From positions 3,296,001 to 3,360,000 of the forward strand of contig OZ245742.1 in NCBI GenBank assembly GCA_965227295.1: 64,000 nt of DNA. Direction: 5' to 3'. Below the pieces are notes generated by a model. That model saw nothing but the letters and a program-made list of their open reading frames with translations. It was not told where the DNA came from and did no database searches. Shown piece by piece: positions 22,173-37,178 of the stretch. This DNA comes from Leptonemataceae bacterium. GTDB taxonomy: Bacteria; Spirochaetota; Leptospiria; Leptospirales; Leptonemataceae. The position numbers and the translations under genes are program-made. Position 1 is the first letter of the stretch. Each line of letters starts with the position of its first letter.

Positions 22173-22300
22173 AAGTCAGATCTCCTTTTTTGCACCGAAC
22201 GTGTCGGGCAGCAGTTTGATCTGATTATGCGCTGCGCGAGATGGATTTACAATAGGACGGATGTACGTGCGGTGGGGACATTTGTCCCGGGCCGGAAAAC

Positions 22301-22552: not shown

Positions 22553-22815
22553 GCCGCTCCGTCCTCCTGCCACTCGATCGGCCAGCTGAGTTCCACTTCG
22601 ATTTCAAAATGTTGCGGCGCCCCGAATTCCGCGGGCGGGTCCTCGTGTTTCTCTTCCAGTTCGATCTTCATGTGAAACGTTTCCGGAATGGCCAGGCCGT
22701 CTTCGCCGGGTTGGAACGTGCCGCCTTCGATTTGAGCGGCCAGTTCGCGCAGGCGTGCTGCGATCGCCGACCGGGAGGATTTTTGAAACGAACGGAATTC
22801 CAGATCGCCGACCAT
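22549..22815 (-). CDS. Amphi-Trp domain protein
   Basis: RSAIAARLRELAAQIEGG and EIEVELSW; AGGAG RBS upstream. Confidence 0.8.
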   Translation of the reverse strand: MVGDLEFRSFQKSSRSAIAARLRELAAQIEGGTFQPGEDGLAIPETFHMKIELEEKHEDPPAEFGAPQHFEIEVELSWPIEWQEDGAA

Positions 22816-22868
22816 GCGAGTTAGATCTCCTGAGTGCCTTACCGTGTCAACGTACTCAACAGGTTAAC

Positions 22869-25800
22869 TTAAGAAAGTTTCGCCGTTGTTGCAGGCTTAA
22901 GGTATTCTCGCGCGGCCTTGCTGAAGGCGAGCATCATCTTTCGTAAATCGCCGCCGTAGCGCGCGGGATCGGGGCCGCGATTCTGGGTCCGTGCCCGCTG
23001 CAATTCGTCCCGGCGTTCGTCTTCTTTGAACGGATTCCAGAGACCGAAGCCGATGTTGTTTTCGATGAGTACCGGTTTCCAGTCGGTAATGTCCTCGGGG
23101 CCGGCCCGGCTCGTCGCGCCGTTGTCGGCGAGGACCGTCATGGATGTGAGCCGGTCCGCGATGCTGCCGACGCCGTCCCGCGCATATTCGTAACCCACGA
23201 TTTCCGGCGTCTCGATGAGTTCGTCGTCTCCGCCGATGCGCAGCACCGGCGTGTCCAGAAAATCGTGCATCATGTAGCGCGGCCGGCTGTACGGATGCCC
23301 CGTTCGATCGTGTCGCTCACGCAGACGACGCCCCAGTAATTGCTGATGATCTTCAATTACGCCGGGATCGTCCGGAGATGTCAGGCGCGACCACAGTGCG
23401 TCCGAGCGTAACTCGATGGCGTGCATGCTGGCCAGGGCCGCTTCCCGGCGCCGGCTGGAGATCGTCTCCGCGGTGGCGGCGTCTCGCGCAAAGGCCGGCC
23501 GCCACTTGAACAACACACCGCCCCGACCGACGTTGGAGACCGCGGCCCGGGACGCCACCGTGAGTTCCAGCACGTACTCCGGTGCTTCGTCCACGTAAAC
23601 GACGATCACGCGTGAGTAAGCGAAGAACTCCGCGTCGGCCGGCGCGGCGATGCCGTGTTTGCGAATGAGTTCCTGGCGCAACCGGCGCAGGTACTCCGGC
23701 GACGCCCACGCCGCGGGATTCGCCGGGATGAGTCGTTGCAGTACCTGGTCGTCGATCCAGCCGACGCGCGCCATGTTCCGCGCCTGGGTGAGCACGTTTT
23801 CCTCCAGCACGTTGCCGGCCCCGTCCCGCAGTTGGGCCGGGAAGGCCAGGCGCCCGCCGGACTGTCGCGCTGCTTTCGAAATGCATTTCCAGTGAAAGTG
23901 AGTGAGGCCGCCGGGAAAACGAGCGCTGCCCCGGCTGAGTTCGGCGACGATTTCGTCTTCGTCCCGGGGCGTGCCGTCCGCGTGAAACTGGTATGATTTT
24001 TTCCAGTGCAACTCCTCGGGTACGCTGACGCCGCGGCCGGGGGCGTGGATGCGCGCGTGTTCGAGTTTGTCGTACATTAAAATGTTGTGAATCCAGGCTT
24101 GTACCGACGGCAGCCCGATGCGTTCGTCGAGGCCCTGCAGGTAATAGGGCGCGCCGTGGAACGGAAAGGACAGGCAGTTTCGTAGCGGTCGTTCGAAGCG
24201 TACGCCGATCATCACGCCGCGCGGTTCGTCTCCGGCGTTTGCATGAAGTCCCGGCGGCAGCGTTAAGTGCTTTTGATGTTCACTCAGTCGGCGAAAGACT
24301 TCGGCATCCACGTACATGAATCCGTGGGGGATGCGCAGGCTTTCGTCATTCTCGTCGAAAAGCAGGGCGCGGCCGAGCACCCAGTTGCACGCGTCTCCGG
24401 GATGTTCGCGGTTGTAGAGCGGGTTTTCTTCGAAGAACGTTAAGAGATGCGGTCGACCCGGCGGGCAGACGATGGCCACGGCCGGACGGTTGCCGTCGTC
24501 GAAGAGTTCGGCGGCCTTGCCCGCGCTGACGTCAAAGATCCCCCGGGCCCGGTGGCCCTGCTGATCGACGTGAGCCAGATCACGCTTGTGCGTGTACCAG
24601 AACCATTCGCGCTCGTGTAAGGGATCACTCGCGGCGGGCCCGCCCACCGGCGGTGTCTCCGGAGTGCCGAGCAGGGCATCGACGTAAGCCGGCGGTGCCT
24701 GGCGCAGATACGTGCGCGAACGAAAGAGGCGATCGAAGTAGCGACCGAGCCAGCGATGTTCCTCGACCTGAATTGCGAAGATCTCTTCGCGGGTGAAGGG
24801 CGTCCCCTCGCCGAGCCACGATCCCATGATGTAATCGTAGTCGCTGAAGCCGCTGCCCGCCATCGGCGAGAAGATGCGCCAGGGGTAATCGAAGACGTGG
24901 TCGTAGATCGTCTCCGCGAAGAATTCGGCCACCGCCAGATGCAGGCGGCGAGAGATAGTTTCCTGCTCCGTATTAAGTTCGTCTGAGGTTAAATTAAAAA
25001 GATCCGCGGTCTTGATCAGGGCGAAAAGCACGTCGAAGAGACCGGCTACGCGCGCGACAGGTCGCAGCATATCCTTTTGACCGGCGCAGCGGTAGGCGAG
25101 GCGGCCGAAGTCTCCCGGATCGTCACCGCGGCCGGCGAGTTCCAACCAGGCCTCGGCCTCGGGATTGCGGCCGGCGTCGAAGAGCAACCGACCGCGCGTG
25201 AGCATCGCTCGTTTTTCCGGCGTGTCCTCGCCCTGGTAACATTCTTCGACGATCGCGTGAAAGGCCCGTTCAGTAATCGCCAGAAATTCGCCGCAGCTTT
25301 CCCGGGCGATGCCCTGCGTCTCCGGACCGAGGTCCACGCTGTTCAGTATTTCCGCGGCGCGATCACACAGGGCTTCCACGGTATTCGGCGTTGCGTCGGC
25401 CAGGCCTTTGCGATAGCCGCTCACCTGGCGACGAATGGATCGCGCGCGCCTCTGCAAAAGATGGCGTTCGAGAGCGCTGCCCGCGGATTCGTCGACGGCT
25501 TCTTCGCGTTTCTTAATGGAAGTGCGCTCACCGTAGACTTCCCGCATGGCACCCACCGGCGCCGTGTACTCCGGGCGCACGAAGCATGCTTCGACGCGTT
25601 GAACCGCATCGGGTCCAAAGCCCGCGTGCTCATCTTCTTTGCCGTTCAGCCGCCGCGTCGCCTCTTCGAAGCGTCGCTTTTCCAGGGCGACCTCCGCTGC
25701 CGGGCGGCCGTTGACCAGGAAGAGCCCGCCGGCGACGAGCCACAAACCGTAATCCAGCGTACCTTTGCCGGTGAGCAGATGAAACCAGCCTTCGCGCATT

Positions 25801-28800
25801 AAGGCATGGCGTTCGGACCAGTTGTAGAACCCGCCGCCGCGCCACCATTCCGCGGAGTGGATGGCCAGCTCTTCTTCGTCCCGGGCCTTGCGGTAACGAT
25901 CCCGGGCCAGTTCGCGGATGACGGTCAGGCATTCTGTTAACTTCTCTTTATCGCCGGCTAAGAGGGTGTCCCGGTAGGCGGCCGCGGCCTCGCATTCTTC
26001 GCGGACGTCGCGCTCGTAGTACTGTAGTTCGTCGAAGCCCACTGCCGGTGACAGATAATAACCGCCCAGGGACAGCCAGGTCTTGATCGCGGTGCGGTCG
26101 AGGGCGGTCTTGCGGCCCTGCACCGGGGCGTCGAAGAGAATGAGAGCGCTTTCGGGCCGTCCGTCTCGCATGTCCGCTGCCGCCCGCGGCAGGTCGTCCA
26201 GGATGGTACGCGCGCTATTTCGCCGGGGATGGCGTTCGATCTCCACCCCCTCGTCTTCGCTGCCGGTGAGTTCGTCGTAGTGCACGATGACCGGCAACAC
26301 GTCGGAACCGCGGAAGGCCTCGCGCAGATCGGTGCCCGGCCCGGCACGATACTCGGGATTCTTGAGGCGGACGTCGAAGACGAGGGCGTGCACCAGACCG
26401 CCCAGGGGTCGTGCGAGTTCCGCGTAACTTTCGTCCGGTAGATCTTTGAGGGTGGTCCAGGAGCGGAGGCGAGCGCCGTAGGTCAGGCAGTTCGCGTCGA
26501 TCTCCTCGTCGCTCATGGACCAGGCAGGGTTCGCGCCGCGCCGGCTGTAACGTGCCAGGCAGGCGTGAATGAGCCGCCGCACCCGATCGGCCCAGGTGGA
26601 AAGCGTGCTCCCGGAAACGTAGTTGTAGACGGACTGCGTGGACATGTTGAACGGCGTGAACAGGCGGATGTCCGCCGGGGCCGAGGTCCGCGGGTATTGC
26701 TGCGCCAGATCCCGCAGGTCGTCGTCGCTCAACTCCCGGCCGTCGTCGTAGAGGCGCTCGGCCAGTAGCTTACGCTGAGTTGTATCTTGTGCATCGAAGC
26801 CGTTCAACAGTAATTGCGCCGTCGCTTCACCCTCGCGATCCAGGCTGGAGTAGATGTGTTCGAGCAGGTGCCGGCCGTCGTGCACGCCGGCGGCGGCCAT
26901 CAGCTCAAACATGCGCAGGCCCATGCTGAGTCGCGCATCGGAGACGGGTTTGTATTCGACGGGCAGCGGGATCACGGCGTCGGAGTAGGCGGGGCTTTCC
27001 GGGCGACGCTCGCGAACGATGTCGAAGGCCTGGCGCAAAAGAAAGATGAGGCTGACCGGCACGAAGCGCATGCGCGACTCGAGCACCTGTAAGATCTTAC
27101 CCTGATACACGCCGTGCACGGAACGCAGGAAACCGCGCGGGTCCACGCGCGGGTCGCGCACGCCGATGCGGTCCGCCGCGGTGAAGAAAGCCGCGGAAGG
27201 CAGCATGCCCCGCGGATGAAAGAGCGAGGGTTCACCGCCGGCCTCGAAGTGCTCGGCCGGTTCGAAGCCCGGTCGACGTTCCGCCGCTTCCACGGCGGTG
27301 AACACACTCTCGCAGCGTTGCGCAAAATCGCGGACGGCGGTTTCGTTCATGACGCCGGAGAGACGATCGGTTAACCTGCGGCGCAGAGATGTTAGCGAGG
27401 ACCAGCGATCCACCGGCAGGCCGGCGTAACGATAGACCTCGTCCCGGGTAATGACGTTCACGAAGTACCAGTAATAGATGTCCTTGGGTTGACAGAAACC
27501 CGTGGAACCCGCACCGCCGGGACGGACTTTGATTTCCGGGCGTTCGGTGCTGTCCGCGGCCAGGCGCTGGAAGTGGCCGACACCGATGGACAACTGCAAC
27601 GCCTGGAAGATGTGCGTGAGGGCGAGCTGGGCTTCCATGATGCCGTTCTCAAACGGTTTCGATTCTTCGGCGTGGCGTACGTCTTCGAAAGAACGCACGT
27701 CGTAATTGTAAAGATCGTAAAAGTTCTCCATGGCGATGCGGGCCGCCCGGTCCGCGGGGCCGATCCACTGCGGCCACTCCTGCACGCTGATGCGTTCCCA
27801 GAATCCCAGGTCCACCCGCGACGGGCCGTAGCCGCGATGGTACTTCTTGTTGCCGCCGCGCGCCTCGTACGAAAAGAGCGGATCGTTCTTGAGCACGAAG
27901 AGCGGCAGCGGCTCGTCCTCGATCGTGCCGGGAGTTTCGCGGTACTCGTCCTCGCGGATCAGCGTGCCGTTCGTGCGCAGACGATAGCGCAGCAGCACCT
28001 CGTCGCGATGAGTGCTCATGCCGAGATCCAGCTTCATGCGGATGATGCGCGGCAGGCTGTCCTCGCTCTGGCCGGCCGTGTACCATTCCATGGTGGGTCC
28101 GAGTGCGTGTTCCTGGATTGCACGCTGCCGGGCCAGGATGCGCAGCTCGTTCTGAAATTCCAGCCCGTACACGGGGTGATTCTGAACGTCATTTTCCGAC
28201 AGAACGCCGTCTTCGATGTCCCAGCCCAGTTCCGGGTTGCGCCGGATGATTTGTTCGAGCGCCGTGCCCCGGAGTTCTTCGCCGTGATTTGCCAGCGCCG
28301 CCTGCGCCGCCGGCGGTTCTTCCGCGTAGCGTCGTTCGCGATGCGGCAGGCTCTGCCAGAGAACGAAACGTTTGGCCGTCTCCCGGCTCACGTCCCGGTT
28401 GCGCAGGATGAGCTGCAGCACCGCGCGTTCCACGGCGGCCTCGGAATCGTCGGCACCGCTCTCGCCGATGATCTCGTCGATGCGATAGTCCAGGCGAAAC
28501 TCCTCGATGACCGAGCGGCCGATCTCCGCAAAGTGCCGGCGAGTTTCTCCCAGGTGTTCGCGGGCTTCTTCTTCTAAGGTACGACCGCCGTAAGTGAAGG
28601 CCGTGGTGAGATTCGTGCAGGTCATCTCGTCGTCGAACCAGAAGCCGGCGCAGAGATCCGTAAGGCCGGCGGCCTGAGTCGTCAGCACAATCCAGAGCGG
28701 TACCGAACGACGGCGGCGGAGCGCCAGGTCTTCGCGGAGAACCGCGTCGCGAATGTCCCTTGCACGAAAGGTGTACGCAGTCGAACTTAAGGCCGTATCG

Positions 28801-30791
28801 ATGCCTTCCAGGCGCACGTCCAGTTCTTCGAGCCGGAGGCCGGCGAGGCTCCGATCTTGGTCCAGGTCCGCGAACAAGGCCTCAACGCGCGGCAGCGAGT
28901 CCGCTTCCATGCGTTGGGCGATTTCCCGCCGACGTTCACGCCAGCGCTGATGGACGAGGGCGCTCAGGCCGGCGACGAGTTCCCGCACCCGGGACTGCTC
29001 TTTGGATTCCCGCAGGGCCTGAAGCACGTCTTCTTCGCGTGCCCCGGGATTCGCTGAGTTCATTTCATCGTCGATTAAGCCGAGCAAACGCGCCGCGTAG
29101 TCCCGGGCCACGGCGACATGCTCGCTCAGGATCACGTCGGCGATATTTTTGCGAAAGGACTGGCCGATCAATCGAATGGCCTTCTCGAAGTTTTCCTGTT
29201 CGATGACGATGGGCGCGCCGCCGGCCTCTGCGTCGGTTTCGTGAATGTAAAGGCCGATGGCCTCGAGGATCACGTCCGCCGCTTCGAACCAGGCGTTGTC
29301 GGATTCGCCCAGGACGTTGTGTCCGCCGGCCCGCAGGGATTCTTCAATCAAACCTTCGGTGGTGTCGAAGGGGTCCACACCGAGGGCCGTCGTGGCCAGG
29401 TTCCAGACCCCCGTCGCCGACGCGCGCTGAATGGAAACGCTGAGCGCGGCGTCGCGCCCGCCGCTTCGGTCCAGGCGTTTGTAAACGGCGTCGACGGCCT
29501 CTCGTACGTCCGCGGCAAAACGGTCCGCAAATTCACGGAGGCGTTCCACGCCGTGCTGCTTCGGCTGCGCGGGGGCCCGGCCGCGGCGCTTTTGGTAGTA
29601 AGATCGGACGGCGGCGTGGATACGGCCGTGGTAGTCGTCGATGCGCTGTTCGAAGCGACGCAGATTTCCCAGCAGCCGCGCCTTCGAAACGGAAGGGGCG
29701 CTGAGCACGGCTTCCAGATCGCGAAGACCGGCGCTTAACTTCGAACGCAAAGCAGTTAGATGTTCGCGCAGTTCTTCCGGGCCTGCGTCGTCGCGGCGGG
29801 AATGCAGCAGGCGTTCCATCTTACGGACCTTCTTGCGCAGTTTCTCCACGTCATGGAGGATCTGCGCTTCCGCCGTGAGCAGAGTGATGAAGTACGACGC
29901 GCGGCTGAAGCGGCTGACAAACAGCGTGCGCCCGTCTTCCAGGCAGCGTTCGCGCAGGCGACGGACGTTGGCCCGGCTGAGTTCCGCATCGAAGTCCGCG
30001 GAGGCATAGACCTCGGTAAGCAGGCGGTGGTTGCGTTCGTCGGGATTCTTTTCGAAGAAGACGACGTCGCGCAGGGCTTCGAGGGAGACGGGCCAGTCGA
30101 TGGTGCTCGCGGCGCGCAGCCAGGCGATGCGCTGTTCGCGCCAGGCCGCGCCGCCGGAGTTCAGGCGTTCGTCGAAACAGTCGGCGATGGTGAGGGCGAA
30201 GACGTTGTCGCTGTCGAGCCAGGGGCCCCGTAATACGTGATCGAGAGAAGTTAGCAGCCCCGGTTCCTTTTTTCGGACCGTGTCGAGAAACTCGAAGCAG
30301 CCGAGCAGGGCCGGGACGAACCCCCGGCGCTCTTTCTTTTTGGCCGGCAGCACTCCCGCCGCGAATAACCGGACCACGGCGGCGAGTACGGCGAGTCCGC
30401 GCTCATCGTCGCCGCGCGGTACGTAGCTCTCGCCGTGGAGGCGAACAGTCGTCCCCTGTGAGACGGCGTCCTGCATGCGGGCCAGAACGCCGGCGTCGAT
30501 GACGATGCGGGGATCATCCTGTGTGACTGTGACGAGGTGTTCTGCGCCGTGGACATAGCGCAGAGGAATCTTGCGCAAACGTTTGCGAACTTCTTTCGCG
30601 AGCTTCGAAGAGAGTTCCTCCAGCAACGTTTCGCCGGAAGCGATGAATCGTTTTGCCGCGACGGCGTCTCTGGAGTCGGCGGGTCCCGGGGACGCCGCAC
30701 GCCGGGCCTGCCAGCGATCGGCAGGTTGTCGGGGCGCTTGATCAACGATGGTTAAGAATGCGGTTTCAGTCGATGTTCGATCGGAGGGCAT
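22869..30791 (-). CDS. Giant 2640-aa protein: expanded UDP-glucose/GDP-mannose dehydrogenase-like region plus C-terminal ATP-grasp domain
   Basis: Dehydrogenase motifs in canonical order: ADVILEAI, NFEKAIRLIG, LTTQAAG, PSRVDLG, AEESKPFEN, RPGGAGSTGFCQPKD, YKPVSDARLS. ATP-grasp motifs: YDKL, ISKAARQSGG, VLQRLI, SRVIV, SNVGRGG, LIENN. Confidence 0.75.
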   Translation of the reverse strand: MPSDRTSTETAFLTIVDQAPRQPADRWQARRAASPGPADSRDAVAAKRFIASGETLLEELSSKLAKEVRKRLRKIPLRYVHGAEHLVTVTQDDPRIVIDAGVLARMQDAVSQGTTVRLHGESYVPRGDDERGLAVLAAVVRLFAAGVLPAKKKERRGFVPALLGCFEFLDTVRKKEPGLLTSLDHVLRGPWLDSDNVFALTIADCFDERLNSGGAAWREQRIAWLRAASTIDWPVSLEALRDVVFFEKNPDERNHRLLTEVYASADFDAELSRANVRRLRERCLEDGRTLFVSRFSRASYFITLLTAEAQILHDVEKLRKKVRKMERLLHSRRDDAGPEELREHLTALRSKLSAGLRDLEAVLSAPSVSKARLLGNLRRFEQRIDDYHGRIHAAVRSYYQKRRGRAPAQPKQHGVERLREFADRFAADVREAVDAVYKRLDRSGGRDAALSVSIQRASATGVWNLATTALGVDPFDTTEGLIEESLRAGGHNVLGESDNAWFEAADVILEAIGLYIHETDAEAGGAPIVIEQENFEKAIRLIGQSFRKNIADVILSEHVAVARDYAARLLGLIDDEMNSANPGAREEDVLQALRESKEQSRVRELVAGLSALVHQRWRERRREIAQRMEADSLPRVEALFADLDQDRSLAGLRLEELDVRLEGIDTALSSTAYTFRARDIRDAVLREDLALRRRRSVPLWIVLTTQAAGLTDLCAGFWFDDEMTCTNLTTAFTYGGRTLEEEAREHLGETRRHFAEIGRSVIEEFRLDYRIDEIIGESGADDSEAAVERAVLQLILRNRDVSRETAKRFVLWQSLPHRERRYAEEPPAAQAALANHGEELRGTALEQIIRRNPELGWDIEDGVLSENDVQNHPVYGLEFQNELRILARQRAIQEHALGPTMEWYTAGQSEDSLPRIIRMKLDLGMSTHRDEVLLRYRLRTNGTLIREDEYRETPGTIEDEPLPLFVLKNDPLFSYEARGGNKKYHRGYGPSRVDLGFWERISVQEWPQWIGPADRAARIAMENFYDLYNYDVRSFEDVRHAEESKPFENGIMEAQLALTHIFQALQLSIGVGHFQRLAADSTERPEIKVRPGGAGSTGFCQPKDIYYWYFVNVITRDEVYRYAGLPVDRWSSLTSLRRRLTDRLSGVMNETAVRDFAQRCESVFTAVEAAERRPGFEPAEHFEAGGEPSLFHPRGMLPSAAFFTAADRIGVRDPRVDPRGFLRSVHGVYQGKILQVLESRMRFVPVSLIFLLRQAFDIVRERRPESPAYSDAVIPLPVEYKPVSDARLSMGLRMFELMAAAGVHDGRHLLEHIYSSLDREGEATAQLLLNGFDAQDTTQRKLLAERLYDDGRELSDDDLRDLAQQYPRTSAPADIRLFTPFNMSTQSVYNYVSGSTLSTWADRVRRLIHACLARYSRRGANPAWSMSDEEIDANCLTYGARLRSWTTLKDLPDESYAELARPLGGLVHALVFDVRLKNPEYRAGPGTDLREAFRGSDVLPVIVHYDELTGSEDEGVEIERHPRRNSARTILDDLPRAAADMRDGRPESALILFDAPVQGRKTALDRTAIKTWLSLGGYYLSPAVGFDELQYYERDVREECEAAAAYRDTLLAGDKEKLTECLTVIRELARDRYRKARDEEELAIHSAEWWRGGGFYNWSERHALMREGWFHLLTGKGTLDYGLWLVAGGLFLVNGRPAAEVALEKRRFEEATRRLNGKEDEHAGFGPDAVQRVEACFVRPEYTAPVGAMREVYGERTSIKKREEAVDESAGSALERHLLQRRARSIRRQVSGYRKGLADATPNTVEALCDRAAEILNSVDLGPETQGIARESCGEFLAITERAFHAIVEECYQGEDTPEKRAMLTRGRLLFDAGRNPEAEAWLELAGRGDDPGDFGRLAYRCAGQKDMLRPVARVAGLFDVLFALIKTADLFNLTSDELNTEQETISRRLHLAVAEFFAETIYDHVFDYPWRIFSPMAGSGFSDYDYIMGSWLGEGTPFTREEIFAIQVEEHRWLGRYFDRLFRSRTYLRQAPPAYVDALLGTPETPPVGGPAASDPLHEREWFWYTHKRDLAHVDQQGHRARGIFDVSAGKAAELFDDGNRPAVAIVCPPGRPHLLTFFEENPLYNREHPGDACNWVLGRALLFDENDESLRIPHGFMYVDAEVFRRLSEHQKHLTLPPGLHANAGDEPRGVMIGVRFERPLRNCLSFPFHGAPYYLQGLDERIGLPSVQAWIHNILMYDKLEHARIHAPGRGVSVPEELHWKKSYQFHADGTPRDEDEIVAELSRGSARFPGGLTHFHWKCISKAARQSGGRLAFPAQLRDGAGNVLEENVLTQARNMARVGWIDDQVLQRLIPANPAAWASPEYLRRLRQELIRKHGIAAPADAEFFAYSRVIVVYVDEAPEYVLELTVASRAAVSNVGRGGVLFKWRPAFARDAATAETISSRRREAALASMHAIELRSDALWSRLTSPDDPGVIEDHQQLLGRRLRERHDRTGHPYSRPRYMMHDFLDTPVLRIGGDDELIETPEIVGYEYARDGVGSIADRLTSMTVLADNGATSRAGPEDITDWKPVLIENNIGFGLWNPFKEDERRDELQRARTQNRGPDPARYGGDLRKMMLAFSKAAREYLKPATTAKLS

Positions 30792-33700
30792 ACCAGAGTA
30801 TCTTCAGTTGCAGCGAAAGCGGCACCTTGGGTCCTTTCTTTTCGCTCGAAGGCGGCTGATATGTAAAGACGTATTCCCGGGAGAAGTCGCTTTCCGCGGT
30901 TTTCGCCCCGTTTTTTGTGCCGAGGGATTTCACGGCGGCGTGGTAGGTCTTGCCCGCTTCGAAAGGTTCGCCCGCCGCGATCTCATTCAGAAACAAAGTG
31001 GTATCCGTAGCCTCGTACTCATGATGATATTCGCCCTGCGCCGGCCCCAGGGAAACGCGATAGGCCGTCGGTTCGCCGGCGGCTTGTTCCCAGTGAAAGT
31101 AGACGCCGCTTGCATCGTTGGCGGCGAGGAAACCGCCGGGGGCCGCGAGTTCCTGCGCAAAAGAGACTGTGATGGGAGTCGCCGTGCCGCGGGTGGAGGT
31201 CGCTGTTAAGGGTGGGCGAGCGAAAGTTACAAGATCGTTGCGAACATCTTGCGGGAGGATGACGCGCTCCTGGTTTGCGCCGGGATTCGGTTTGCCGCGG
31301 CCGGGCTCGAAAAAGGCGATCATGAGGGAGAAGGGATGCTGGAATCCGTTCCAGGTCGGCGCCGAACTCGCGTACTGATTTCCGGAGATGAAGGCCGCCT
31401 GAAAGCCCTGACGATTGCCCCAGGTGGGCTGGTAGTACTGATCGCCGAAGTGGGCACCGAAAGGATTGATGCGGATCTTGAGTCGGTCGTCGAAGACCGA
31501 GGGTTTGACCTGTTGCATGGGGGCGAAGGCGAAGTTCGCCTGGACCGTGGTATCCATGGCCACGGCCACTCCGAGTGTTTCGGCGCTGACGGCGGCGTAC
31601 TCGGCCGTGATGTGGTTGTTAATGTTTGCCAGATTTAAGTTAGCGTCCGAATGTTTGAAGTAATCGACCGTGTACGAGGACTCGGTGCCGAGGTAGTTCC
31701 GCTTCAGTACGCGAAAGGGTTTGTCCGTGGAGGCCGGGACCGCGAAGCGCAGCGGCGCCGGCATGACCTCGTCCCACTTGCGATCCAGCTTACGGGTGAG
31801 GGACGCCTGTTCGAGCTTTACGTAATCCTCGCGTACCGTCTCCGGATAGAGGATGCCGCCTTCGACGAAGACGTAGGGCACGTCTTCGACGAGGCTGATG
31901 CGATAGTCGATGCGCCCCGCTTTGCTGCCGTCGATCCCCGGCAGGGGAAACTCGCCGGTGAGTCGCACCGTGGCCACCCCGCGCGTCCCATCCTGCTCCA
32001 CGCTGACCTTCAGGTTCTCCGGAGCGAAGCGCCGGCGATCGTAGGTGATGGCCGGGATCAGGCTGCCGGCTTCCAGGCGCGGAAGATAGGGCAGGCCCTC
32101 GTCCATCCGGGCGTTCACGGCCTGCACGTGTCCGTGTTCGTTCAGGAGGATTTCGACGAATTCGTTTCTTAAGTGATCTTTTGCGGCGGTTACGGCAACA
32201 CTGCTCTCCCGCGGCGCGAGATAGAGCGAGTAACGTCCGTCGCGCAGTACGTTGTCGTCGCTGGCGGGGGCGATGTACAGTTTCGCCCGGTCGTCCGTCG
32301 TGAGCAGGGTGTACGTGCGCAGGGCGTTCCCCTGTTCGTCGGTGACCAGGTAGTCCCGTTCGTCGTCGGGAAATTTCGTGACCGATAGGGTGATCACCGC
32401 GCCGCCGGTTTGCCCGGAGAAGCCGTTGTCCGGATTGTCACGGTTGAATCGCGGCTCGGCCCGGGTAAACGAAAAGCTGTCGATGCGCTCGGCGTCCCCG
32501 GGCAGGTCGCGTCCCGGGACGGCCCCGGCGCTGCGCCCCCGGGCCGCGGTTTCCAGTTGCGCCCTGGCCCGGGCGGTGAGGGCGTCCATGTTGTCGACGA
32601 GTTTGCGGACGACCTGTTCCCGGGCCCGGGCCAGATACGGGGTGGCCATGCCGAAGTTCGTAGTGGAAAGCAAACGCAAACGTACTTCGAATAACTGTTT
32701 GAGGGTTTGTGCTAAGCCGCCGGGCACGTTGCCGCCGTATAGGTTCTCGGCCAGTTCCTCCACGCGCCGGGAGGCGGTGAGGCGGGTCCAGTAGTCCTGG
32801 GTGGTGGCCTTCTCCGCCCAGGAGGAGTAGCCGTTAAAGGAACCGTCCGCCGGGTCCTGTCCGAACGTGATCTCACCGGCCGGATCATGTTGGTTCAGGT
32901 ACTCCGTGACCGTCGTGAACTCCACGTAATCGAGGCCCGCGAGTTCCTGCAGCAGTTGTTCCAGGCCGCCGGTATTCGGCAGCCACTTGAGATGCGAGGG
33001 TAGTTTATAACCGTACCAGTACTCGTCGTCGGCGTCGAAGTTCAGCGTAATCAACACATCGCGATCGATCTCGCCGGACAACTGCGCGCGACGCAGCGTG
33101 CGGACCCAACGTTTGAGGCTTACGTTTTCGATGAGGTCGCCGACGTTATAGGCCGGCATCACGATGATCTCTTCGCCGGTGTCCGGATGTTTGTAGAGCA
33201 GCGGGTTGTGCGCTTCTTCCAGGGTGAGTTCCCGTTCGAAGACACGAAACGTATCGAAGGTGATGGCGCTATAGTAGAAGATGAGCGCGTTCACGCCCAG
33301 TTGTTTGTAGAGATCGTACGTGCCCGGTGTGGCCATCATCTCCTGGGGCCGGGCGATGGGCGACCACTCACCGAAGACGTCCTGGTTCCCGCTCCGTGCC
33401 GGATTCGTAATGGCGCGTTCCATGGCGGCACGAAACTCCTCCTCGTTCATGGCGGACATGAGGCCGTTGTTGTACGACATGAGCACGATGTCGTCGCCGT
33501 TCTCTTTGACCCGCCGCCGGATGTCTTCGATGATGTCCGGCGCGTACTCCGGCAACGTCTCCTGTAACGAAAACAGATTCTCAATGTCCCAGTGCGCTTT
33601 GACCGGGGTGCCCTTTTCGTTGTGTTCGTCGAGCACCTCGATGATGCGCCGGATGATGCGAATGTCTTTGCCGAAGCCGGCCTCGTCGTTCGTATCGATG

Positions 33701-33867
33701 CGGTAGGAGTGATAGAGGTTCGTATGAAAACCGAAGGTAACGTAGACTTTGTGCGGGCTTTCCCCGCCGAGAGTTTTGATGCGCGGCACGAGTATGACCA
33801 GCAGCCAGTAGGCGATGAAGATGACGAACAGCGCTACGATCAACGCGCGCCAGAGCAGTGCTTTCAT
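30766..33867 (-). CDS. Membrane-anchored glycoside hydrolase / polysaccharide-deacetylase-fold (GH38/GH57-like) protein with C-terminal FN3-like domain
   Basis: N-terminal TM segment; GFHTNLYHSY metal-binding-like motif; ARPQEMM, NFDADDE; beta-rich C-terminal half; APGGF..YFHW..YRV..TYHAAVKS FN3 pattern. Confidence 0.55.
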   Translation of the reverse strand: MKALLWRALIVALFVIFIAYWLLVILVPRIKTLGGESPHKVYVTFGFHTNLYHSYRIDTNDEAGFGKDIRIIRRIIEVLDEHNEKGTPVKAHWDIENLFSLQETLPEYAPDIIEDIRRRVKENGDDIVLMSYNNGLMSAMNEEEFRAAMERAITNPARSGNQDVFGEWSPIARPQEMMATPGTYDLYKQLGVNALIFYYSAITFDTFRVFERELTLEEAHNPLLYKHPDTGEEIIVMPAYNVGDLIENVSLKRWVRTLRRAQLSGEIDRDVLITLNFDADDEYWYGYKLPSHLKWLPNTGGLEQLLQELAGLDYVEFTTVTEYLNQHDPAGEITFGQDPADGSFNGYSSWAEKATTQDYWTRLTASRRVEELAENLYGGNVPGGLAQTLKQLFEVRLRLLSTTNFGMATPYLARAREQVVRKLVDNMDALTARARAQLETAARGRSAGAVPGRDLPGDAERIDSFSFTRAEPRFNRDNPDNGFSGQTGGAVITLSVTKFPDDERDYLVTDEQGNALRTYTLLTTDDRAKLYIAPASDDNVLRDGRYSLYLAPRESSVAVTAAKDHLRNEFVEILLNEHGHVQAVNARMDEGLPYLPRLEAGSLIPAITYDRRRFAPENLKVSVEQDGTRGVATVRLTGEFPLPGIDGSKAGRIDYRISLVEDVPYVFVEGGILYPETVREDYVKLEQASLTRKLDRKWDEVMPAPLRFAVPASTDKPFRVLKRNYLGTESSYTVDYFKHSDANLNLANINNHITAEYAAVSAETLGVAVAMDTTVQANFAFAPMQQVKPSVFDDRLKIRINPFGAHFGDQYYQPTWGNRQGFQAAFISGNQYASSAPTWNGFQHPFSLMIAFFEPGRGKPNPGANQERVILPQDVRNDLVTFARPPLTATSTRGTATPITVSFAQELAAPGGFLAANDASGVYFHWEQAAGEPTAYRVSLGPAQGEYHHEYEATDTTLFLNEIAAGEPFEAGKTYHAAVKSLGTKNGAKTAESDFSREYVFTYQPPSSEKKGPKVPLSLQLKILWYALRSNID

Positions 33868-34008: not shown

Positions 34009-34425
34009 ATGCCCCACATCACGAAACTCGAAGTCAAACAGGCCTTCGCCGAATTTCCGGCCGAACTGCGCGAACGTCTTCTGGCCGTCCGTGATCTCAT
34101 CTACGAAATCGCCGCCGGGGACGAGGAGATCGGCAACGTCGAAGAAAGCCTCAAGTGGGGTCAGCCCAGTTATTCCGTAAAAACCGGTACCCCCGTGCGC
34201 CTGGGCGTGCACTCCGCCGAGCGCGGCGAATGCGCCCTGTATGTGCATTGCCAGACGAATCTCATTGCCGGCTTTCGCCGCAAATACGCATCGCGCAGCG
34301 GCGGTCGCACGCCCGTGGACTTCGACGGCAATCGGGCTGTAGTACTCCGTGGTAAGAAGTTACCCGTGCGAATCTTGCGAGAGTGCATCCGCGCGGCGCT
34401 GACCTACCGGCTTCAGTCCAGGTAA
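34009..34425 (+). CDS. DUF1801 (YdhG-like) protein
   Basis: EESLKWGQPSY, LYVHCQTNL, FDGNRA, CIRAALTY. Confidence 0.8.
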   Translation: MPHITKLEVKQAFAEFPAELRERLLAVRDLIYEIAAGDEEIGNVEESLKWGQPSYSVKTGTPVRLGVHSAERGECALYVHCQTNLIAGFRRKYASRSGGRTPVDFDGNRAVVLRGKKLPVRILRECIRAALTYRLQSR

Positions 34426-35726
34426 CCGAACCAGCGCGGAAGCAGCAGCGAAAGTTCCGGCACCAGCGCCGTAATGCCCAGGACCACGAGCATGGCGGCG
34501 AAGAGCGGCAACATGGGCCGCACCACACGTTCCAGCGGCACCCCGGCCGTGCTGCAACCGACGAAGAGGACGCTGCCCACCGGCGGCGTGCAGATGCCGA
34601 TCGATAGATTCAAAATCATCATAATCCCGAAGTGCACCGGGTCCACGCCCAGCTCCCGGACCACCGGTAAAAAGACCGGCGTAAAAATCAGCACGGCCGG
34701 CGTAATGTCCAAAAAAGCGCCGACGATGAGCAGGATCAGGTTCATCATCAGCAGGATGATGATCGGGTTGTCGCTCCAGGCCAGCAGGGCCGTGCTTAAG
34801 TTCTCGGGCAGGCGTTCGTAGGCCAGGGTCCACGCCAGCGCCGAGGAACAGGCGATTAACAACAACACAACAGAAGTTACGGCGGCGCTTTCGCGCAGCA
34901 ACTCCGGCAGTTCGCGCCAGGAAATTTCGCGATAGATCAGCACCGACAACACGAATGTATACACGACGGCGGCGGCGCTGGCCTCGGTGGCGGTGAACCA
35001 ACCGGCCACGATACCGCCGATGACCACCACGATCAAAAACATCGACGGGGCCGCGTTGGCGAAGGCGCGGAGGGCCTCACGCAGTTCCAGGTTTGCCGCG
35101 CGGCCGTAGCCCCGGCGTTTGGCCATCACGGCGGCGGTAAGAATCAAGGCCAGGGCGATGAGCAGACCCGGCAGGTAGCCGGCCAGAAACAGCGCCGCAA
35201 TGGAAACGCCGCCGCTGGCCAGGGAGTAGATGATCAGAATGTTCGAAGGCGGCACGATCAGTCCGGTGGTGCTTGAGGTAATGTTCACCGCGGCGGCGAA
35301 GGCCGGGTCGTAGCCCTCGCGTTTCATCATGGGCGTAAGCGCGCCGCCGATGGCGGCGGCCGCGGCAACGGCGGAGCCGGAGACCGCGCCAAAGAGCAGA
35401 CATGCCGTCACGTTCACCGCGGCGAGGCCGCCGGGCAGGCCGCCCACTAACACGCGGGCAAACGCGATTAAGCGCCGGGCAATGCCGCCGCGGTTCATCA
35501 ACTGGCCGGCCAGAATAAAAAACGGAATCGCGAGTAAAGCGAACGAGTCCAGGCCGGCGGCCATGCGCTGGGCCGTGCTCGTGAAGGCGATGTCCGCGGG
35601 CAAACTGAGCAGGAGCGCAGCCGTTGCGGCAATGCCGATGCTGTACGAGATCGGCGTACCGAGGATGAGCGGAACCCCGAAACACGCGAGAAAGACGAGC
35701 ATATGCAGTACGTTAAGTTCGATCAT
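34413..35726 (-). CDS. dctM: TRAP transporter large permease
   Basis: LLAIPFFILAGQLM, GAVSGSA, IVPPS, FTATEA, GICTPPVG. Confidence 0.93.
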   Translation of the reverse strand: MIELNVLHMLVFLACFGVPLILGTPISYSIGIAATAALLLSLPADIAFTSTAQRMAAGLDSFALLAIPFFILAGQLMNRGGIARRLIAFARVLVGGLPGGLAAVNVTACLLFGAVSGSAVAAAAAIGGALTPMMKREGYDPAFAAAVNITSSTTGLIVPPSNILIIYSLASGGVSIAALFLAGYLPGLLIALALILTAAVMAKRRGYGRAANLELREALRAFANAAPSMFLIVVVIGGIVAGWFTATEASAAAVVYTFVLSVLIYREISWRELPELLRESAAVTSVVLLLIACSSALAWTLAYERLPENLSTALLAWSDNPIIILLMMNLILLIVGAFLDITPAVLIFTPVFLPVVRELGVDPVHFGIMMILNLSIGICTPPVGSVLFVGCSTAGVPLERVVRPMLPLFAAMLVVLGITALVPELSLLLPRWFGYLD

Positions 35727-36189
35727 GGCTCTCGAAAAACAGGAAATACACGGCGTACACGAATACAAAACAACCGCTCACCGGCACCGCCAGGTAAACG
35801 TATCCCAACGGTAAGTTTAACGCGGCAGAGGTTTGCCGGAGTTCGAAGGCCGTGTAGCTTAAATAGCCGCCCCCGCCGATCAGCACGGACAGCGCGAAGG
35901 CGGCCGTCAGGACTTCCACGATCACTCGCAGTACGGCCCGGCCACGGGGGCCGAGACGATTCGGCAGCAGTCCCACCGCCAGATGGCGCCGGCGACCGCC
36001 GGCATAAGCGCCGCCGAGAAAACCGAGCCAGACGAGCAGATAACGCGCGAGTTCCTCGGTAAAAGACGAGGGGTCGCCGAGCACGAAGCGCGTAAAGACC
36101 TGCCACACAACATTCAGCACGCTCACCGCCATCAACAGGGCCGTGGCGCCGCCGAGAAAACCGTCGATGATGTTAAACAATCGCTGCAT
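35713..36189 (-). CDS. dctQ: TRAP transporter small permease
   Basis: QVFTRFVL..SSFTEELARYLLVWLGFLG; four TM segments. Confidence 0.9.
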   Translation of the reverse strand: MQRLFNIIDGFLGGATALLMAVSVLNVVWQVFTRFVLGDPSSFTEELARYLLVWLGFLGGAYAGGRRRHLAVGLLPNRLGPRGRAVLRVIVEVLTAAFALSVLIGGGGYLSYTAFELRQTSAALNLPLGYVYLAVPVSGCFVFVYAVYFLFFESHDRT

Positions 36190-36194
36190 GAAAG

Positions 36195-37175
36195 TTAGTG
36201 GGACTGCTGAATGCGCCGAAACCACGGCCCCAGCTCCGGATCCCGGGCGAACTCTTCGTGCATGGCGGACGTGCGTTTGCGAAAGGGAGCCGGGTCCGGC
36301 TCGTAGATGCGCACGCCGGCCCGGCGGACTTCCCGCAGGGCGTGTTGCGTCGCTTCCCGCCACAGTCGCTTTTGCAACTGCGCGGATTCGTCGGCGGCCT
36401 GCTGAAGCCAGACGCGTTCTTGTTCGTTCAAACGATGCCAGGTCGGCGTGCCGATCAGCAAAACGTCGGGTACCGCGCTGTGACGATTGAGGGCGTAGTG
36501 TTTGCAGACCTCGTAGTGCCCGGAAAGATAAAAGCTCGGCGGATTGTTTTCCGCCCCGTCCACGATGCCCTGCTGCAGCGCCGTATACAACTCGCCCCAG
36601 GCGATGGGAGTGGCCGATCCGCCCAGGCTGCGCACCAGTTGTAAAGCCACGGGGCTTTCCTGGACGCGAATCTTCAGGCCGCGCAGATCATCGGGGTGCA
36701 GGATCGGCGGCTTAGCTTTTTTTGTGTAAAAGCTACGCCAGCCGGAGTCGTAATAGCACAGACCGCGCAGACGATAACGTTCGCCGCGTCGCAGCAGTTC
36801 CCGGCCGATTTCGCCTTCCAATACGCCGAAACGATGGGCGTCATCGCGAAAGAGATACGGGAGCCCGAGGACCCGGTACTCCGGCACGAAACCCTCGAGG
36901 GCCGAGGAGGAGACCTTGGTCATGGCCAGGCTGCCCAACTGCAACAGCTCGAGGCTCTCACGTTGTGTGCCCAGTTGATTGCCCGGGTGCACGTCCACGC
37001 GCACGGTGCCGCCGGACAACTCAGCCAGGCGTTCCCCGAGATGCAACATGGCCCGGTGCACCGGGTGCGAAACATCCAGGCCGTGGCCGAGCTTGAGGAC
37101 TTTAACCTCGCGGACCTCTCCGCACGCGGTGAGCCAGAGAAGCGTGAGCAACACGAGGGCGCCGGCTTTCCGCAT
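36195..37175 (-). CDS. dctP: TRAP substrate-binding lipoprotein
   Basis: LTAC lipobox; GLKIRVQ (carboxylate-binding Arg); ELYTALQQGIVDGAEN. Confidence 0.93.
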   Translation of the reverse strand: MRKAGALVLLTLLWLTACGEVREVKVLKLGHGLDVSHPVHRAMLHLGERLAELSGGTVRVDVHPGNQLGTQRESLELLQLGSLAMTKVSSSALEGFVPEYRVLGLPYLFRDDAHRFGVLEGEIGRELLRRGERYRLRGLCYYDSGWRSFYTKKAKPPILHPDDLRGLKIRVQESPVALQLVRSLGGSATPIAWGELYTALQQGIVDGAENNPPSFYLSGHYEVCKHYALNRHSAVPDVLLIGTPTWHRLNEQERVWLQQAADESAQLQKRLWREATQHALREVRRAGVRIYEPDPAPFRKRTSAMHEEFARDPELGPWFRRIQQSH

Positions 37176-37178
37176 GAT

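Follow-up and report, generated by a model that had tools for sequence, protein, structure and literature searches.

The 64,000-nucleotide stretch of DNA analysed here (the window) encodes a 2640-aa protein, P0001, which we tentatively interpret as a hexuronate-processing megaenzyme that would combine C6 acyl-phosphate and Cys-thioester chemistry, with the reductive direction favoured; we give this reading a probability of about 0.3. The gene product is a cytoplasmic multi-domain predicted enzyme whose family is widespread among bacteria and unannotated. It consists of an N-terminal region, a dehydrogenase-derived module split by inserts, a helical middle region and a C-terminal ATP-grasp module (Table 1). 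A preliminary description of this DNA had taken the gene to be a single intact reading frame, and this holds: the frame begins with ATG, has no internal stop codon and aligns end to end with its relatives, being collinear over its full length with proteins of 2245–2548 aa from other phyla.

Table 1. Features of the giant protein and of its operon, with positions in the window
Feature	Residues	Positions	Strand	Remarks
Giant ORF P0001	1-2640	22869..30791	-	ATG start, 2640 aa, zero internal stops; stop codon 22869-22871
N-terminal region	1-284	29940..30791	-	Conserved in the family alignment; no recognisable fold
NDP-sugar-dehydrogenase-derived module	~285-1560	26112..29939	-	Profile, hhalign, AF2/Foldseek; N-terminal boundary is a lead
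TLFVSRFSRASY	289-300	29892..29927	-	Pairwise BLAST aligns it with the GxGxxG segment of stand-alone P0112
AADVILEAIGLY	504-515	29247-29282	-	Dehydrogenase-like motif
KAIRLIGQSF	537-546		-	Dehydrogenase-like motif
LWIVLTTQAAG	699-709	28665..28697	-	T704 and T705 nearly invariant
YGPSRVDLG	988-996	27804..27830	-	Counterpart of dehydrogenase 'PE[RF]V..G' in profile and hhalign alignments
AEESKPFEN	1041-1049	27645..27671	-	Putative catalytic Lys1045/Asn1049 helix; aligned to canonical AExxKxxEN
PGGAGSTGFCQPKD	1091-1104	27480..27521	-	Putative catalytic Cys1100 loop; Asp1104 at C+4
YKPVSDARLS	1280-1289	26925..26954	-	Putative start of C-terminal (NDP-binding-type) domain; aligned to canonical YKxxVxDxRxSP
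Middle region	1561-2079	24555..26111	-	Conserved (alignment), largely helical; HxFDYP motif
ATP-grasp module	2080-2640	22872..24554	-	AF2 fold and conserved motifs
YDK	2240-2242		-	ATP-grasp motif
KAARQSGGR	2306-2314		-	ATP-grasp motif; K2306, SGGR 2311-2314
SNVGRGG	2419-2425		-	ATP-grasp motif; NVGRGG 2420-2425
LIENNIGFGLW	2575-2585		-	ATP-grasp motif; E2577/N2579
1033-aa ORF, upstream of giant		30766..33867	-	Last 26 nt overlap the giant's start; GH38/GH57-like (lead)
TRAP transporter		34413..37175	-	DctP 36195-37175, DctQ 35713-36363, DctM 34413-35768
GHMP-kinase-family protein, 589 aa		37179..38948	-	GHMP_kinases_N 1.5e-5, GHMP_kinases_C 2.5e-4
Companion ATP-grasp-like protein, 439 aa		38932..40251	-	BLAST to companions in L002 (6e-10), L004 (1.5e-10) and L001 (8e-6)

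A single search returned 117 clusters of relatives. Of these, 27 carry a source name, of which 26 read "hypothetical protein" and one names only its fused kinase. By source name, the members belong to Planctomycetota, Armatimonadota, Latescibacteria, Sumerlaeota and Poribacteria, and further to Omnitrophica, Zixibacteria, Aerophobetes and one Methylovulum. Overall identity among family members is only 20–30%. The family is frequent among environmental bacteria, and the giants rank among the largest proteins of their genomes. A literature search found no description of a sugar dehydrogenase/ATP-grasp fusion, with or without a GHMP kinase; as far as this literature and the names of the relatives show, the initial impression that no protein of such architecture had been described is supported.

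Searches with P0001 alone yielded almost nothing, and family profiles were therefore required. The protein gave only sub-threshold matches to TPR_4 and DUF4630 in Pfam, a match at E 0.047 in NCBIfam (a score of 12.5 bits, where the cut-off for NDP-sugar dehydrogenase is 750) and a match at E 0.022 in a phmmer search of PDB sequences, while a word-index search returned two relatives. No Pfam or PDB-sequence match was obtained for the N-terminal region, no usable match in the ESM Atlas for the first 690 residues, and none in a PDB-sequence search for the middle region, of which residues 1892–2077 are all-helical in the C-terminal AF2 model. A promoter and terminator scan of positions 21400–41000 gave counts equal to the shuffled expectation and was hence uninformative.

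The dehydrogenase fold, which had been proposed from motifs, was recovered by profile, by a scan of 1.8 billion proteins and by structure prediction, and the profile and Foldseek searches placed it where those motifs lie. A profile of the whole family, built from 36 sequences, matched the PDB sequences 4r16 (E 1e-18), 3g79 (3.6e-17) and Cap5O (1e-12), and the 10 best of its 14 matches were all NDP-sugar dehydrogenases. Comparison with 12 canonical dehydrogenases by hhalign gave a probability of 99.7 and an E-value of 2.2e-25 over residues 980–1320, and all nine short matches in the 1.8-billion-protein scan were canonical UDPG_MGDP_dh proteins. The AF2 model of residues 661–1600 (pLDDT 81.9) gave 75 Foldseek matches at E<=1e-3, and all among the matches listed were NDP-sugar dehydrogenases, with modest TM-scores of <=0.47 to the known structures. 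Helical inserts interrupt the module at about residues 740–935, 1130–1215 and 1300–1500. Towards the N-terminus, residues 251–521 are brought into the module by BLAST to P0112, a stand-alone relative; the hhalign matches of the N-domain to dehydrogenases were collinear and non-significant throughout. PF00984 is present in some relatives, and P0001 reaches no Pfam cut-off. The C-terminal NDP-sugar-binding domain was found by Pfam in the stand-alone relatives P0112 and P0122 but not in P0001, where the tail of this domain gave a weak, non-significant profile match at 'GaD..' (domain 2).

Each dehydrogenase motif named in the preliminary description was located at its proposed position. Their order also proved correct; the proposed spread of more than 1000 aa applies to the whole module (~285–1560), the motifs themselves spanning about 785 aa (504–1289). 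The residues P990, S991, R992, G996, K1045, E1048, N1049, G1098, C1100, K1103, Y1280, K1281, D1285 and R1287 are invariant in the 36-sequence alignment, and the motifs therefore exceed what chance would produce. The catalytic Cys and Lys that had been picked out, C1100 and K1045, are both in this set. Among family proteins of at least 1900 aa, the Cys motif G[FYHWLM]CxxK[DE] occurs in 140 of 141, the exception (P0068) being an N-terminally truncated fragment, and 138 of 141 carry K..[ED]N ahead of the Cys. By alignment, the module keeps the putative covalent-catalysis set Cys1100, Lys1045, Asn1049 and Asp1104. The LWIVLTTQAAG segment probably corresponds to the strand and loop that read 'ESTVxPGTT' in the dehydrogenases; this pairing appeared as a collinear alternative hhalign match, which alone is not significant (E 0.088).

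Two features of the canonical enzymes are replaced. The absence of a GxGxxG motif, already remarked upon, was confirmed: among the six full-length members aligned, three or more never have G.G..[GAS] in the same column. Instead of the Gly-rich loop, the segment at residues 289–300 carries a conserved G/S-R-x-S/G-R-A motif, with R294, F295, R297 and A298 invariant in six full-length sequences, and may be equivalent to the Rossmann beta1 loop. GxGxxG is present in P0112 and P0122; in pairwise BLAST, P0018 was the only giant to which the P0122 segment aligned, and P0122 gave no match to P0001 across the 289–300 region. The other replacement concerns Ser991, which in the alignment occupies the position of the Glu in the canonical PE motif: PSR[VI] is found in 138 of 141 family proteins, compared with a P-E-R that all 12 of the canonical dehydrogenases share. 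We take Glu161 of human UGDH to be the Glu of the N-P-E-F motif. In human UGDH, Glu161 is reported to act as Bronsted base when the thioester is hydrolysed, the E161Q exchange as lowering kcat 610-fold and trapping covalent intermediates, Lys220 as stabilising the oxyanion, and an Asp280-bound water as deprotonating the Cys.

The proposal of a C-terminal ATP-grasp fold fared differently by method, being supported by structure and left without a match by sequence profile. The AF2 model of this module (pLDDT 86.7, pTM 0.87) gave 36 Foldseek matches at E<=1e-3. The matches listed include Ddl, DcsG, LysX/ArgX, RimK, GshB and biotin carboxylase, and all among them are ATP-grasp enzymes or multidomain carboxylases containing a biotin carboxylase domain; the target-normalised TM-scores are modest, reaching 0.57. 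Across 31 sequences the motif residues vary little or not at all, and by motif resemblance K2306, SGGR, NVGRGG, E2577 and N2579 are candidates for the functional ATP-grasp residues. In the sequence searches, P0001 did not match ATP-grasp in Pfam, a five-sequence C-terminal profile gave four PDB matches at E<=10 with none to ATP-grasp (best E 0.23), and the 36-sequence whole-family profile likewise left ATP-grasp unmatched in PDB. Relatives show only sub-threshold ATP-grasp matches, e.g. GSH-S_ATP at E 0.11 in P0002.

The giant gene lies in an operon with a TRAP transporter, a GHMP-family kinase and an ATP-grasp-like companion. The three transporter genes were well matched in Pfam (DctP 3.9e-74, DctM 1.1e-121, DctQ 7.1e-32). 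Among PDB sequences, DctP matched best to 4n8y (7.4e-66), 4x8r (3.2e-64), 4n91, 4mhf and 4n15, structures reported to contain galacturonate or glucuronate as ligand; by sequence comparison, the binding protein of the operon is thus closest to hexuronate binders. The 589-aa kinase gave a fucokinase-type match of 2.6e-9, far below the cut-off, and weak BLAST matches to the fused kinases of P0003 (4.7e-4) and P0048 (1.6e-8). The 439-aa companion matched ATP-grasp_3 at E 0.017, below the cut-off, and a companion profile matched Ddl in PDB only at E 0.03–0.4; its motifs DK, GTEG and LExNPRPxG are conserved. Paralogy between the companion and the ATP-grasp module of the giant was considered and not established (hhalign probability 8.5%, E 0.004). 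For the 1033-aa ORF directly upstream, Glyco_hydro_57 was matched at E 0.0031, below the Pfam cut-off, and GH38/GH57 clusters are among its feature neighbours in the Atlas (0.84–0.86). It was not found adjoining the giant in loci L001, L002 and L004, and P0003 shows no similarity to it. A convergent 871-aa Isochorismatase-TCAD9-phosphatase gene was rejected as a member of the unit because it is absent from L001, L002 and L004.

The giant forms a conserved unit with a GHMP sugar kinase and another ATP-grasp protein, and the unit keeps the same order when fused in larger relatives. The companion ATP-grasp adjoins the giant in all three of the fetched loci that extend far enough to include flanking genes; in the window it lies in the operon of the giant, with the kinase, TRAP and 1033-aa genes between them. 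As fusions, the second ATP-grasp and the kinase are carried by relatives of 3400–5700 aa: the companion is fused in P0003 and in seven of nine mega-relatives, and the kinase in eight of ten relatives of 3105–4734 aa and in five of the nine mega-relatives. The clearest kinases of the unit resemble galactokinase. Neighbouring genes include GH88, a glucuronyl-C5-epimerase-like protein and LacI at L001, a galactokinase-like kinase with a PGM/PMM-like protein next to it at L002, and ROK, glutamate dehydrogenase and a class-III aminotransferase at L004. The link to uronates comes from two of the four neighbourhoods, the window and L001; uronate-specific genes were not seen at L002 and L004. No glycosyltransferase, nucleotidyltransferase or export genes occur in the four neighbourhoods. 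With a TRAP binding protein of the hexuronate type, GH88, LacI and ROK regulators, an anomeric sugar kinase and a PGM-like mutase among their genes, the neighbourhoods point to hexuronate uptake and processing, not to polysaccharide biosynthesis.

In the scheme that we favour, an imported hexuronate of the glucuronate or galacturonate type would be the substrate of the system, and anomeric phosphorylation by the GHMP kinase would probably come first. The C6 carboxylate would then be activated as an acyl phosphate by the ATP-grasp module, and the same carbon would be held, without hydrolysis, as a thioester of Cys1100 on the dehydrogenase-derived module. Reduction is the favoured outcome, from acyl phosphate through thioester and aldehyde to the alcohol, i.e. 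a hexose 1-phosphate; the net effect would be a reversal of UGDH chemistry at the cost of ATP, with a logic like that of glutamate-5-kinase and gamma-glutamyl-phosphate reductase. The retention of the Cys/Lys/Asn set together with the replacement of the hydrolytic Glu by Ser991 speaks for this scheme, as do the domain assignments, the conserved unit with companion and kinase, and the hexuronate and importer context. Against it, NAD(P)(H) is required for reduction as much as for oxidation, yet there is no GxGxxG and the N-domain is not significant by sequence. By Foldseek, the ATP-grasp module matches carboxylate-amine ligases, which as a rule finish the ligation at the site where the acyl phosphate is made and do not pass it on. 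A second ATP-grasp would be left over in a simple reduction scheme, and two successive ligations fit it better. Moreover, the kinase in the window is only weakly related to the fused or adjacent kinases of the family (E 4.7e-4; 1.6e-8). The modest TM-scores of both modules and a uronate link seen in two of the four neighbourhoods also count against it. We consider it doubtful that the unit constitutes, in full, a new hexuronate assimilation route of C1 phosphorylation, C6 acyl-phosphate formation, capture by Cys1100 and reduction to hexose 1-phosphate that bypasses the isomerase pathway.

The preliminary description offered two functional readings, the synthesis and amidation of an NDP-uronate by a coupled enzyme and a sensor role. 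Making an NDP-uronate would need NAD+ and thioester hydrolysis, and the absence of the Gly-rich loop and Ser991 at the Glu position argue against it. On this first reading, which we regard as unlikely, the dehydrogenase module would oxidise C6 of an NDP-hexose or hexose 1-phosphate with NAD+, and the ATP-grasp modules would join the new carboxylate to an amine or amino acid, or to two of them, to give a uronamide-type product. The intact Cys/Lys/Asn/Asp set and an ATP-grasp fold closest to carboxylate-amine ligases are consistent with such a route; two ATP-grasp modules would suit two ligations, and the glutamate dehydrogenase and class-III aminotransferase at L004 could supply amines. A precedent is described for the C-terminal domain of Cj1438, which amidates the C6 carboxylate of glucuronate with ATP (PMC11800397). 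The lack of GxGxxG argues against oxidation, as does the Ser at the position of the acid-releasing Glu, which should make the release of free uronate slow. The missing glycosyltransferase, nucleotidyltransferase and export genes are likewise unfavourable, and uronate synthesis would be redundant in an operon that also encodes an importer of the hexuronate type.

Dispensing with redox chemistry altogether would account for the loss of the Gly-rich NAD loop alongside retention of Cys/Lys/Asn/Asp. Cys1100 could then form a C6 thioester from an acyl phosphate made by the ATP-grasp, or by attack on a uronamide or uronate ester, in an acyl-transferase or amidase-like reaction independent of NAD. The roles reported for Lys220 and the Asp280-bound water in human UGDH do not themselves need NAD, and yet we judge this quite improbable from the sequence features: to our knowledge an acyl-transferase of the UGDH fold is without precedent, loss of the Glu base disfavours efficient hydrolysis and hence an amidase, and the GxGxxG of P0112 and P0122 suggests that the ancestor of the clade was redox-active. 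Highly unlikely, finally, is a non-catalytic ligand-binding domain, a sensor or scaffold, that would control or position the ATP-grasp ligase. The lost NAD loop and hydrolytic Glu, the huge helical inserts and the very large protein would suit it. Conservation of the Cys motif in 140 of 141 proteins and of Lys/Asn in 138 of 141, despite 20–30% identity, argues the other way, since binding alone would not require a nucleophilic Cys; the sensor proposal fits poorly with so strictly invariant a Cys/Lys/Asn/Asp set.

On the reductive hexuronate reading, the giant may perform sugar-acid chemistry new to description. A dehydrogenase of about 450 aa has been stretched nearly threefold by inserts with its putative covalent-catalysis residues preserved, and has shed the textbook-defining NAD loop and hydrolytic base. 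Coupling to ATP-grasp, if true, would be a new reaction type in uronic-acid metabolism, would bear on the use of pectin, alginate-like and glycosaminoglycan-derived sugars by marine and soil bacteria, and would offer a new enzymatic means to reduce or derivatise sugar acids. If the reductive route is correct, ATP would drive backwards a UGDH reaction that is otherwise irreversible, and the route would act as an electron sink for phyla that are fermentative and for the most part uncultured.

Among known systems, the NDP-sugar 6-dehydrogenases (UDPG_MGDP_dh) are related to the central module, the closest being UDP-ManNAc and NDP-GalNAcA dehydrogenases (4r16, 3g79, Cap5O 3ojl), followed by UDP-glucose dehydrogenases. 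They share with it a homologous central domain and, by alignment, the start of the C-domain, the motif order and the Foldseek fold, as well as the Cys nucleophile, the Lys/Asn helix, an Asp or Glu at C+4 and YK..D.R.S. In contrast to these enzymes of ~420–480 aa, the module of the giant measures ~1280 aa with its helical inserts, lacks GxGxxG, has Ser for the Glu of the PE motif and is fused to other modules. With the ATP-grasp carboxylate-amine/thiol ligases (D-Ala:D-Ala ligase, DcsG, LysX/ArgX, RimK and glutathione synthetase), the C-terminal module shares the predicted fold and, by motif resemblance, the Lys strand and loop K....SGGR, the Gly-rich NVGxGG and an ExN near the C-terminus. It differs in having no significant Pfam or PDB sequence match and in its size of ~560 aa with extra beta-rich insertions, and unlike the ligases compared it sits within a 2640-aa chain.

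Acyl-phosphate reductase pairs are known in glutamate-5-kinase with gamma-glutamyl-phosphate reductase, which are fused in P5CS, and in aspartokinase with aspartate-semialdehyde dehydrogenase. The proposed scheme would follow the same logic as these kinase/Cys-dependent reductase pairs, in which an ATP-made acyl phosphate becomes a Cys thioester that is reduced by NAD(P)H; their folds are unrelated to those of the giant, and the likeness is one of mechanism alone. The C-terminal domain of Campylobacter jejuni Cj1438 has an ATP-grasp fold. It would be a functional analogue if the ATP-grasp module of the giant acts on a uronate carboxylate: it is an ATP-dependent amidoligase, encoded in a biosynthetic cluster, that acts on the C6 carboxylate of D-glucuronate already in the capsule chain (PMC11800397). 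The amidoligase of Cj1438 is fused to a GT2 glycosyltransferase, whereas the ATP-grasp of the giant is fused to a dehydrogenase-derived module.

The giant protein (P0001) is a genuine, intact gene: it is encoded by one ORF with an ATG start, 2640 codons and no internal stops, the G+C content of the region (approximately 0.62-0.64) equals that of its surroundings, and in alignments it is collinear over its full length with relatives of 2245-2548 aa. The preliminary description had read it as an NDP-sugar dehydrogenase fused to an ATP-grasp ligase, and every motif named there was located in P0001 at the position reported. Direct searches with P0001 were nearly blind to its kinship. Pfam gave nothing above cut-off, NCBIfam gave UDP-ManNAc dehydrogenase at E 0.047 (aa 1036-1107), the PDB sequences gave 4r16 at E 0.022, and a word-index search using full-length P0001 recovered as relatives only P0002 (2548 aa) and P0003 (4332 aa, with a GHMP-kinase domain). 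Scanning a single genome from each species identified four loci with giant relatives, whose MAGs carry the labels Sumerlaeota (L001), Planctomycetota (L002), uncultured bacterium (L003) and Aerophobetes (L004).

A search with the L002 protein, a typical member, returned 117 clusters of 1393-4435 aa. Source names on 27 of these comprised 26 of "hypothetical protein" and one taken from its fused kinase; some clusters carry precomputed PF00984 or PF00288. No description of the giant family was found in the literature searched, which, together with the uninformative cluster names, agrees with the earlier statement that no protein of this architecture is known to have been described. The folds are already known; the novelty lies in the architecture, in which residues are kept and which are lost, and in the conserved partnership.

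The proposed dehydrogenase fold was recovered by profiles, by hhalign, by a scan of 1.84 billion representatives and by AlphaFold2 with Foldseek. A profile of five sequences (aa 690-1600) gave seven PDB matches at E<=10, the best six being NDP-sugar dehydrogenases, with E values of 4.3e-6 for 4r16, 3.2e-5 for 3g79, 0.012 for BceC and 0.21 for CalS8. The family profile of 36 sequences matched 4r16 (1e-18), 3g79 (3.6e-17), Cap5O (1e-12) and UDP-glucose dehydrogenases (near 1e-6), and the best ten of its 14 matches all belonged to the NDP-sugar dehydrogenase family. The large scan yielded 226 matches at E<=1e-3, 87 of them at E<=1e-30; its weaker tail included proteins of approximately 380-460 aa, and all nine that were examined had the N, central and C domains of canonical UDPG_MGDP_dh proteins. 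Alignment to 12 canonical enzymes with hhalign (probability 99.7, E 2.2e-25) paired giant aa 980-1320 with canonical positions 156-371 of 456, with a gap of some 90 aa following the catalytic Cys.

Structure models were built for aa 661-1600 and 1890-2640. The first, from an input alignment free of canonical dehydrogenases, reached pLDDT 81.9 and pTM 0.79, and Foldseek returned 75 PDB matches at E<=1e-3, all of those listed being NDP-sugar dehydrogenases. The target-normalised TM-scores were modest (<=0.47), as large inserts in a multi-domain fold would lead one to expect. The model and hhalign placed helical inserts at about aa 740-935, 1130-1215 and 1300-1500.

Ten residues of this module are invariant in 36 sequences (K1045, E1048, N1049, G1098, C1100, K1103, Y1280, K1281, D1285 and R1287). 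Among the 141 family proteins of at least 1900 aa, the Cys motif is present in 140, the one exception being a truncated fragment, and K..[ED]N upstream of the Cys in 138. P-S-R stands in 138 of 141 giants where dehydrogenases have P-E-R/F, and P-E-R was found in all 12 canonical enzymes. The Glu of the N-P-E-F motif is, we assume, Glu161 of human UGDH. Accounts of the human enzyme describe Cys276 as the nucleophile, deprotonated by a water bound to Asp280, Lys220 as base and oxyanion stabiliser, and Glu161 as the Bronsted base of thioester hydrolysis; they report that E161Q lowers kcat 610-fold and traps covalent intermediates. With the catalytic residues kept and the Glu lost, the giants appear fully equipped to form or retain a C6 thio(hemi)acetal or thioester, but lack the residue that releases the acid.

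No GxGxx[GAS] common to at least three of six aligned members was found, consistent with the earlier failure to see a GxGxxG motif. Two stand-alone expanded dehydrogenases from the large scan, P0112 (844 aa) and P0122 (899 aa), bear on this loss. Pfam detects the central and C domains in both; they share with the giants the inserts and a "[VI]xTTQA.G" strand, and their PE motif lacks the Glu (TPSRV and TPANV). Both have a GxGxxG near aa 65-80, approximately 250 aa upstream of this strand. Judged from these sequences, the two proteins look like evolutionary intermediates that bridge canonical enzymes and giants. BLAST pairs P0001 aa 251-521 with P0112 aa 26-279 (E 5e-5) and lays the Gly-rich segment of P0112 over "SRFSRA" (aa 293-298), suggesting as a lead a probable start of the dehydrogenase-derived module near aa 285. 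The "SRFSRA" site, which across the family reads G/S-R-[FML]-S/G-R-A, may likewise be equivalent to the Rossmann beta1 loop. For the N domain, hhalign gave only a collinear match of "VLTTlgpGeTE" to "ESTv-PGTT" that was not significant (E 0.088).

The ATP-grasp assignment was borne out by structure but not by sequence profiles, since Pfam and comparisons of C-terminal and whole-family profiles with the PDB gave no ATP-grasp matches. The model of aa 1890-2640 (pLDDT 86.7, pTM 0.87) gave 36 Foldseek matches at E<=1e-3 with TM-scores to target of <=0.57; among the matches listed were D-Ala:D-Ala ligases, DcsG, LysX/ArgX, RimK, glutathione synthetase and biotin carboxylases, with synapsin next at 1.3e-3. 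The model shows aa 1892-2077 as helices, with the ATP-grasp itself beginning near aa 2080. Comparison of 31 sequences showed no variation at K2306, S2311, G2312 and R2314, and next to none at G2313, N2420, G2422, G2424, E2577 and N2579.

The giant, a companion ATP-grasp protein and a GHMP kinase form a conserved three-part unit. The genomic context covers four loci (the window, L001, L002 and L004; L003 does not extend far enough to show any neighbours) and the fusions. An ATP-grasp-like companion of 400-530 aa adjoins the giant in L001, L002 and L004; these companions are interrelated at E 1e-56 to 1e-81 and are matched by the 439-aa protein of the window at 8e-6 to 1.5e-10. A GHMP kinase is adjacent to the giant in L001 and L002, the latter with galactokinase matches at 1e-41, below the equivalog cut-off; the window kinase is a weaker match, and no GHMP kinase lies nearby in L004. 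P0003 is a fusion in the order giant, companion, kinase. A C-terminal GHMP domain was found in eight of ten scanned relatives of 3105-4734 aa, and in mega-relatives of 4426-7944 aa the companion segment (seven of nine) and the kinase (five of nine) occur in constant order.

Several mega-relatives (P0016 with 7944 aa, P0025, P0043, P0055 and P0039) carry an extra 1400-3400 aa N-terminal to the family core, for which BLAST against a small local set gave no match. P0039, the one of these scanned with Pfam, has an odd, partial CsrA match (E 4.5e-8, profile positions 2-25 of 53).

Features of the window and their domain content
Position	Strand	Length (aa)	Feature
7871-9273	-		Adjoining, overlapping ORFs: HEPN_RiboL-PSP (E 4.6e-13) and HipA-like kinase (E 8.7e-15)
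9791-13102	+	1103	HAMP, SpoIIE/PP2C phosphatase and C-terminal TPR domains
13346-14896	+	516	HisF-type His_biosynth only in C-terminal half (aa 258-498, E 3e-81)
18989-21604	+	871	Isochorismatase, TCAD9 (ternary-complex-associated domain 9, E 9e-66) and dual-specificity phosphatase domains; convergent with giant
22869-30791	-	2640	Giant (P0001)
30766-33867	-	1033	Overlaps giant start by 26 nt
37179-38948	-		GHMP kinase
38932-40251	-	439	Companion ATP-grasp
53189-54049	-		Isochorismatase-domain protein
59073-62249	-	1058	HAMP, SpoIIE/PP2C phosphatase and C-terminal TPR domains

The minus-strand genes of the window are tightly packed from 40251 to 22869, in the order companion ATP-grasp, GHMP kinase, DctP, DctQ, DctM, 1033-aa protein and giant. 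Among solved structures, DctP is closest to 4n8y (7.4e-66), 4x8r (3.2e-64), 4ovr, 4n91, 4p1l, 4mhf and 4n15. Published accounts give 4N8Y as galacturonate-bound and 4X8R as glucuronate-bound, 4N91 as binding glucuronate, 4MHF as binding glucuronate/galacturonate, and 4N15 as the template for the glucuronate-binding STM3169. The 1033-aa protein matched no family above cut-off and is specific to the window among the loci compared; the sole leads (a weak Pfam GH57 match, E 0.003; GH38/57-like Atlas neighbours, 0.84-0.86) hint that it may be GH38/57-like. L001 contains genes for a LacI regulator, an MGH1-like hydrolase, GH88 and proteins resembling glucuronyl-C5-epimerase and acetyl-xylan esterase; L002 a PGM/PMM-like protein; and L004 ROK, glutamate dehydrogenase, a class-III aminotransferase and a GFO/IDH/MocA oxidoreductase. 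Uronate-specific genes occur in only two of the four loci, and no glycosyltransferase or export genes were seen in these neighbourhoods. Gene content points to uptake and processing of acidic sugars.

Elsewhere in the window, the 871-aa ORF, whose architecture is of conflict-system type, was not found beside the giant in other loci; it is one of two separate Isochorismatase-domain proteins in the 64 kb. The HEPN_RiboL-PSP and HipA-like ORFs may constitute a toxin-antitoxin or defence pair, the 1103-aa and 1058-aa proteins look paralogous, and the 516-aa ORF, whose N-terminal half drew no domain assignment in the scan, may start later than called or be a fused form.

In a hexuronate derivative, the ATP-grasp and the Cys site would both act on C6, and several schemes are conceivable. 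The preliminary description proposed oxidation followed by amidation, for which Cj1438C, described as carrying out ATP-dependent glucuronate amidation (PMC11800397), is a precedent. It also considered a non-catalytic sensor; a further alternative is an NAD-independent acyl-enzyme role. We favour the reductive direction, but only tentatively, at a probability of roughly 0.2-0.3. Four observations agree with it: the operon's uronate importer; the anomeric kinase, joined in L002 by a mutase-like gene; the fusion of a carboxylate-activating to a thioester-forming domain; and the lost hydrolytic base. Reduction at C6 does not explain why there is a second ATP-grasp and no NAD motif, nor does it account for the giant's size or its N-terminal and middle regions. 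A similar logic to the proposed reduction is found in glutamate-5-kinase and gamma-glutamyl-phosphate reductase.
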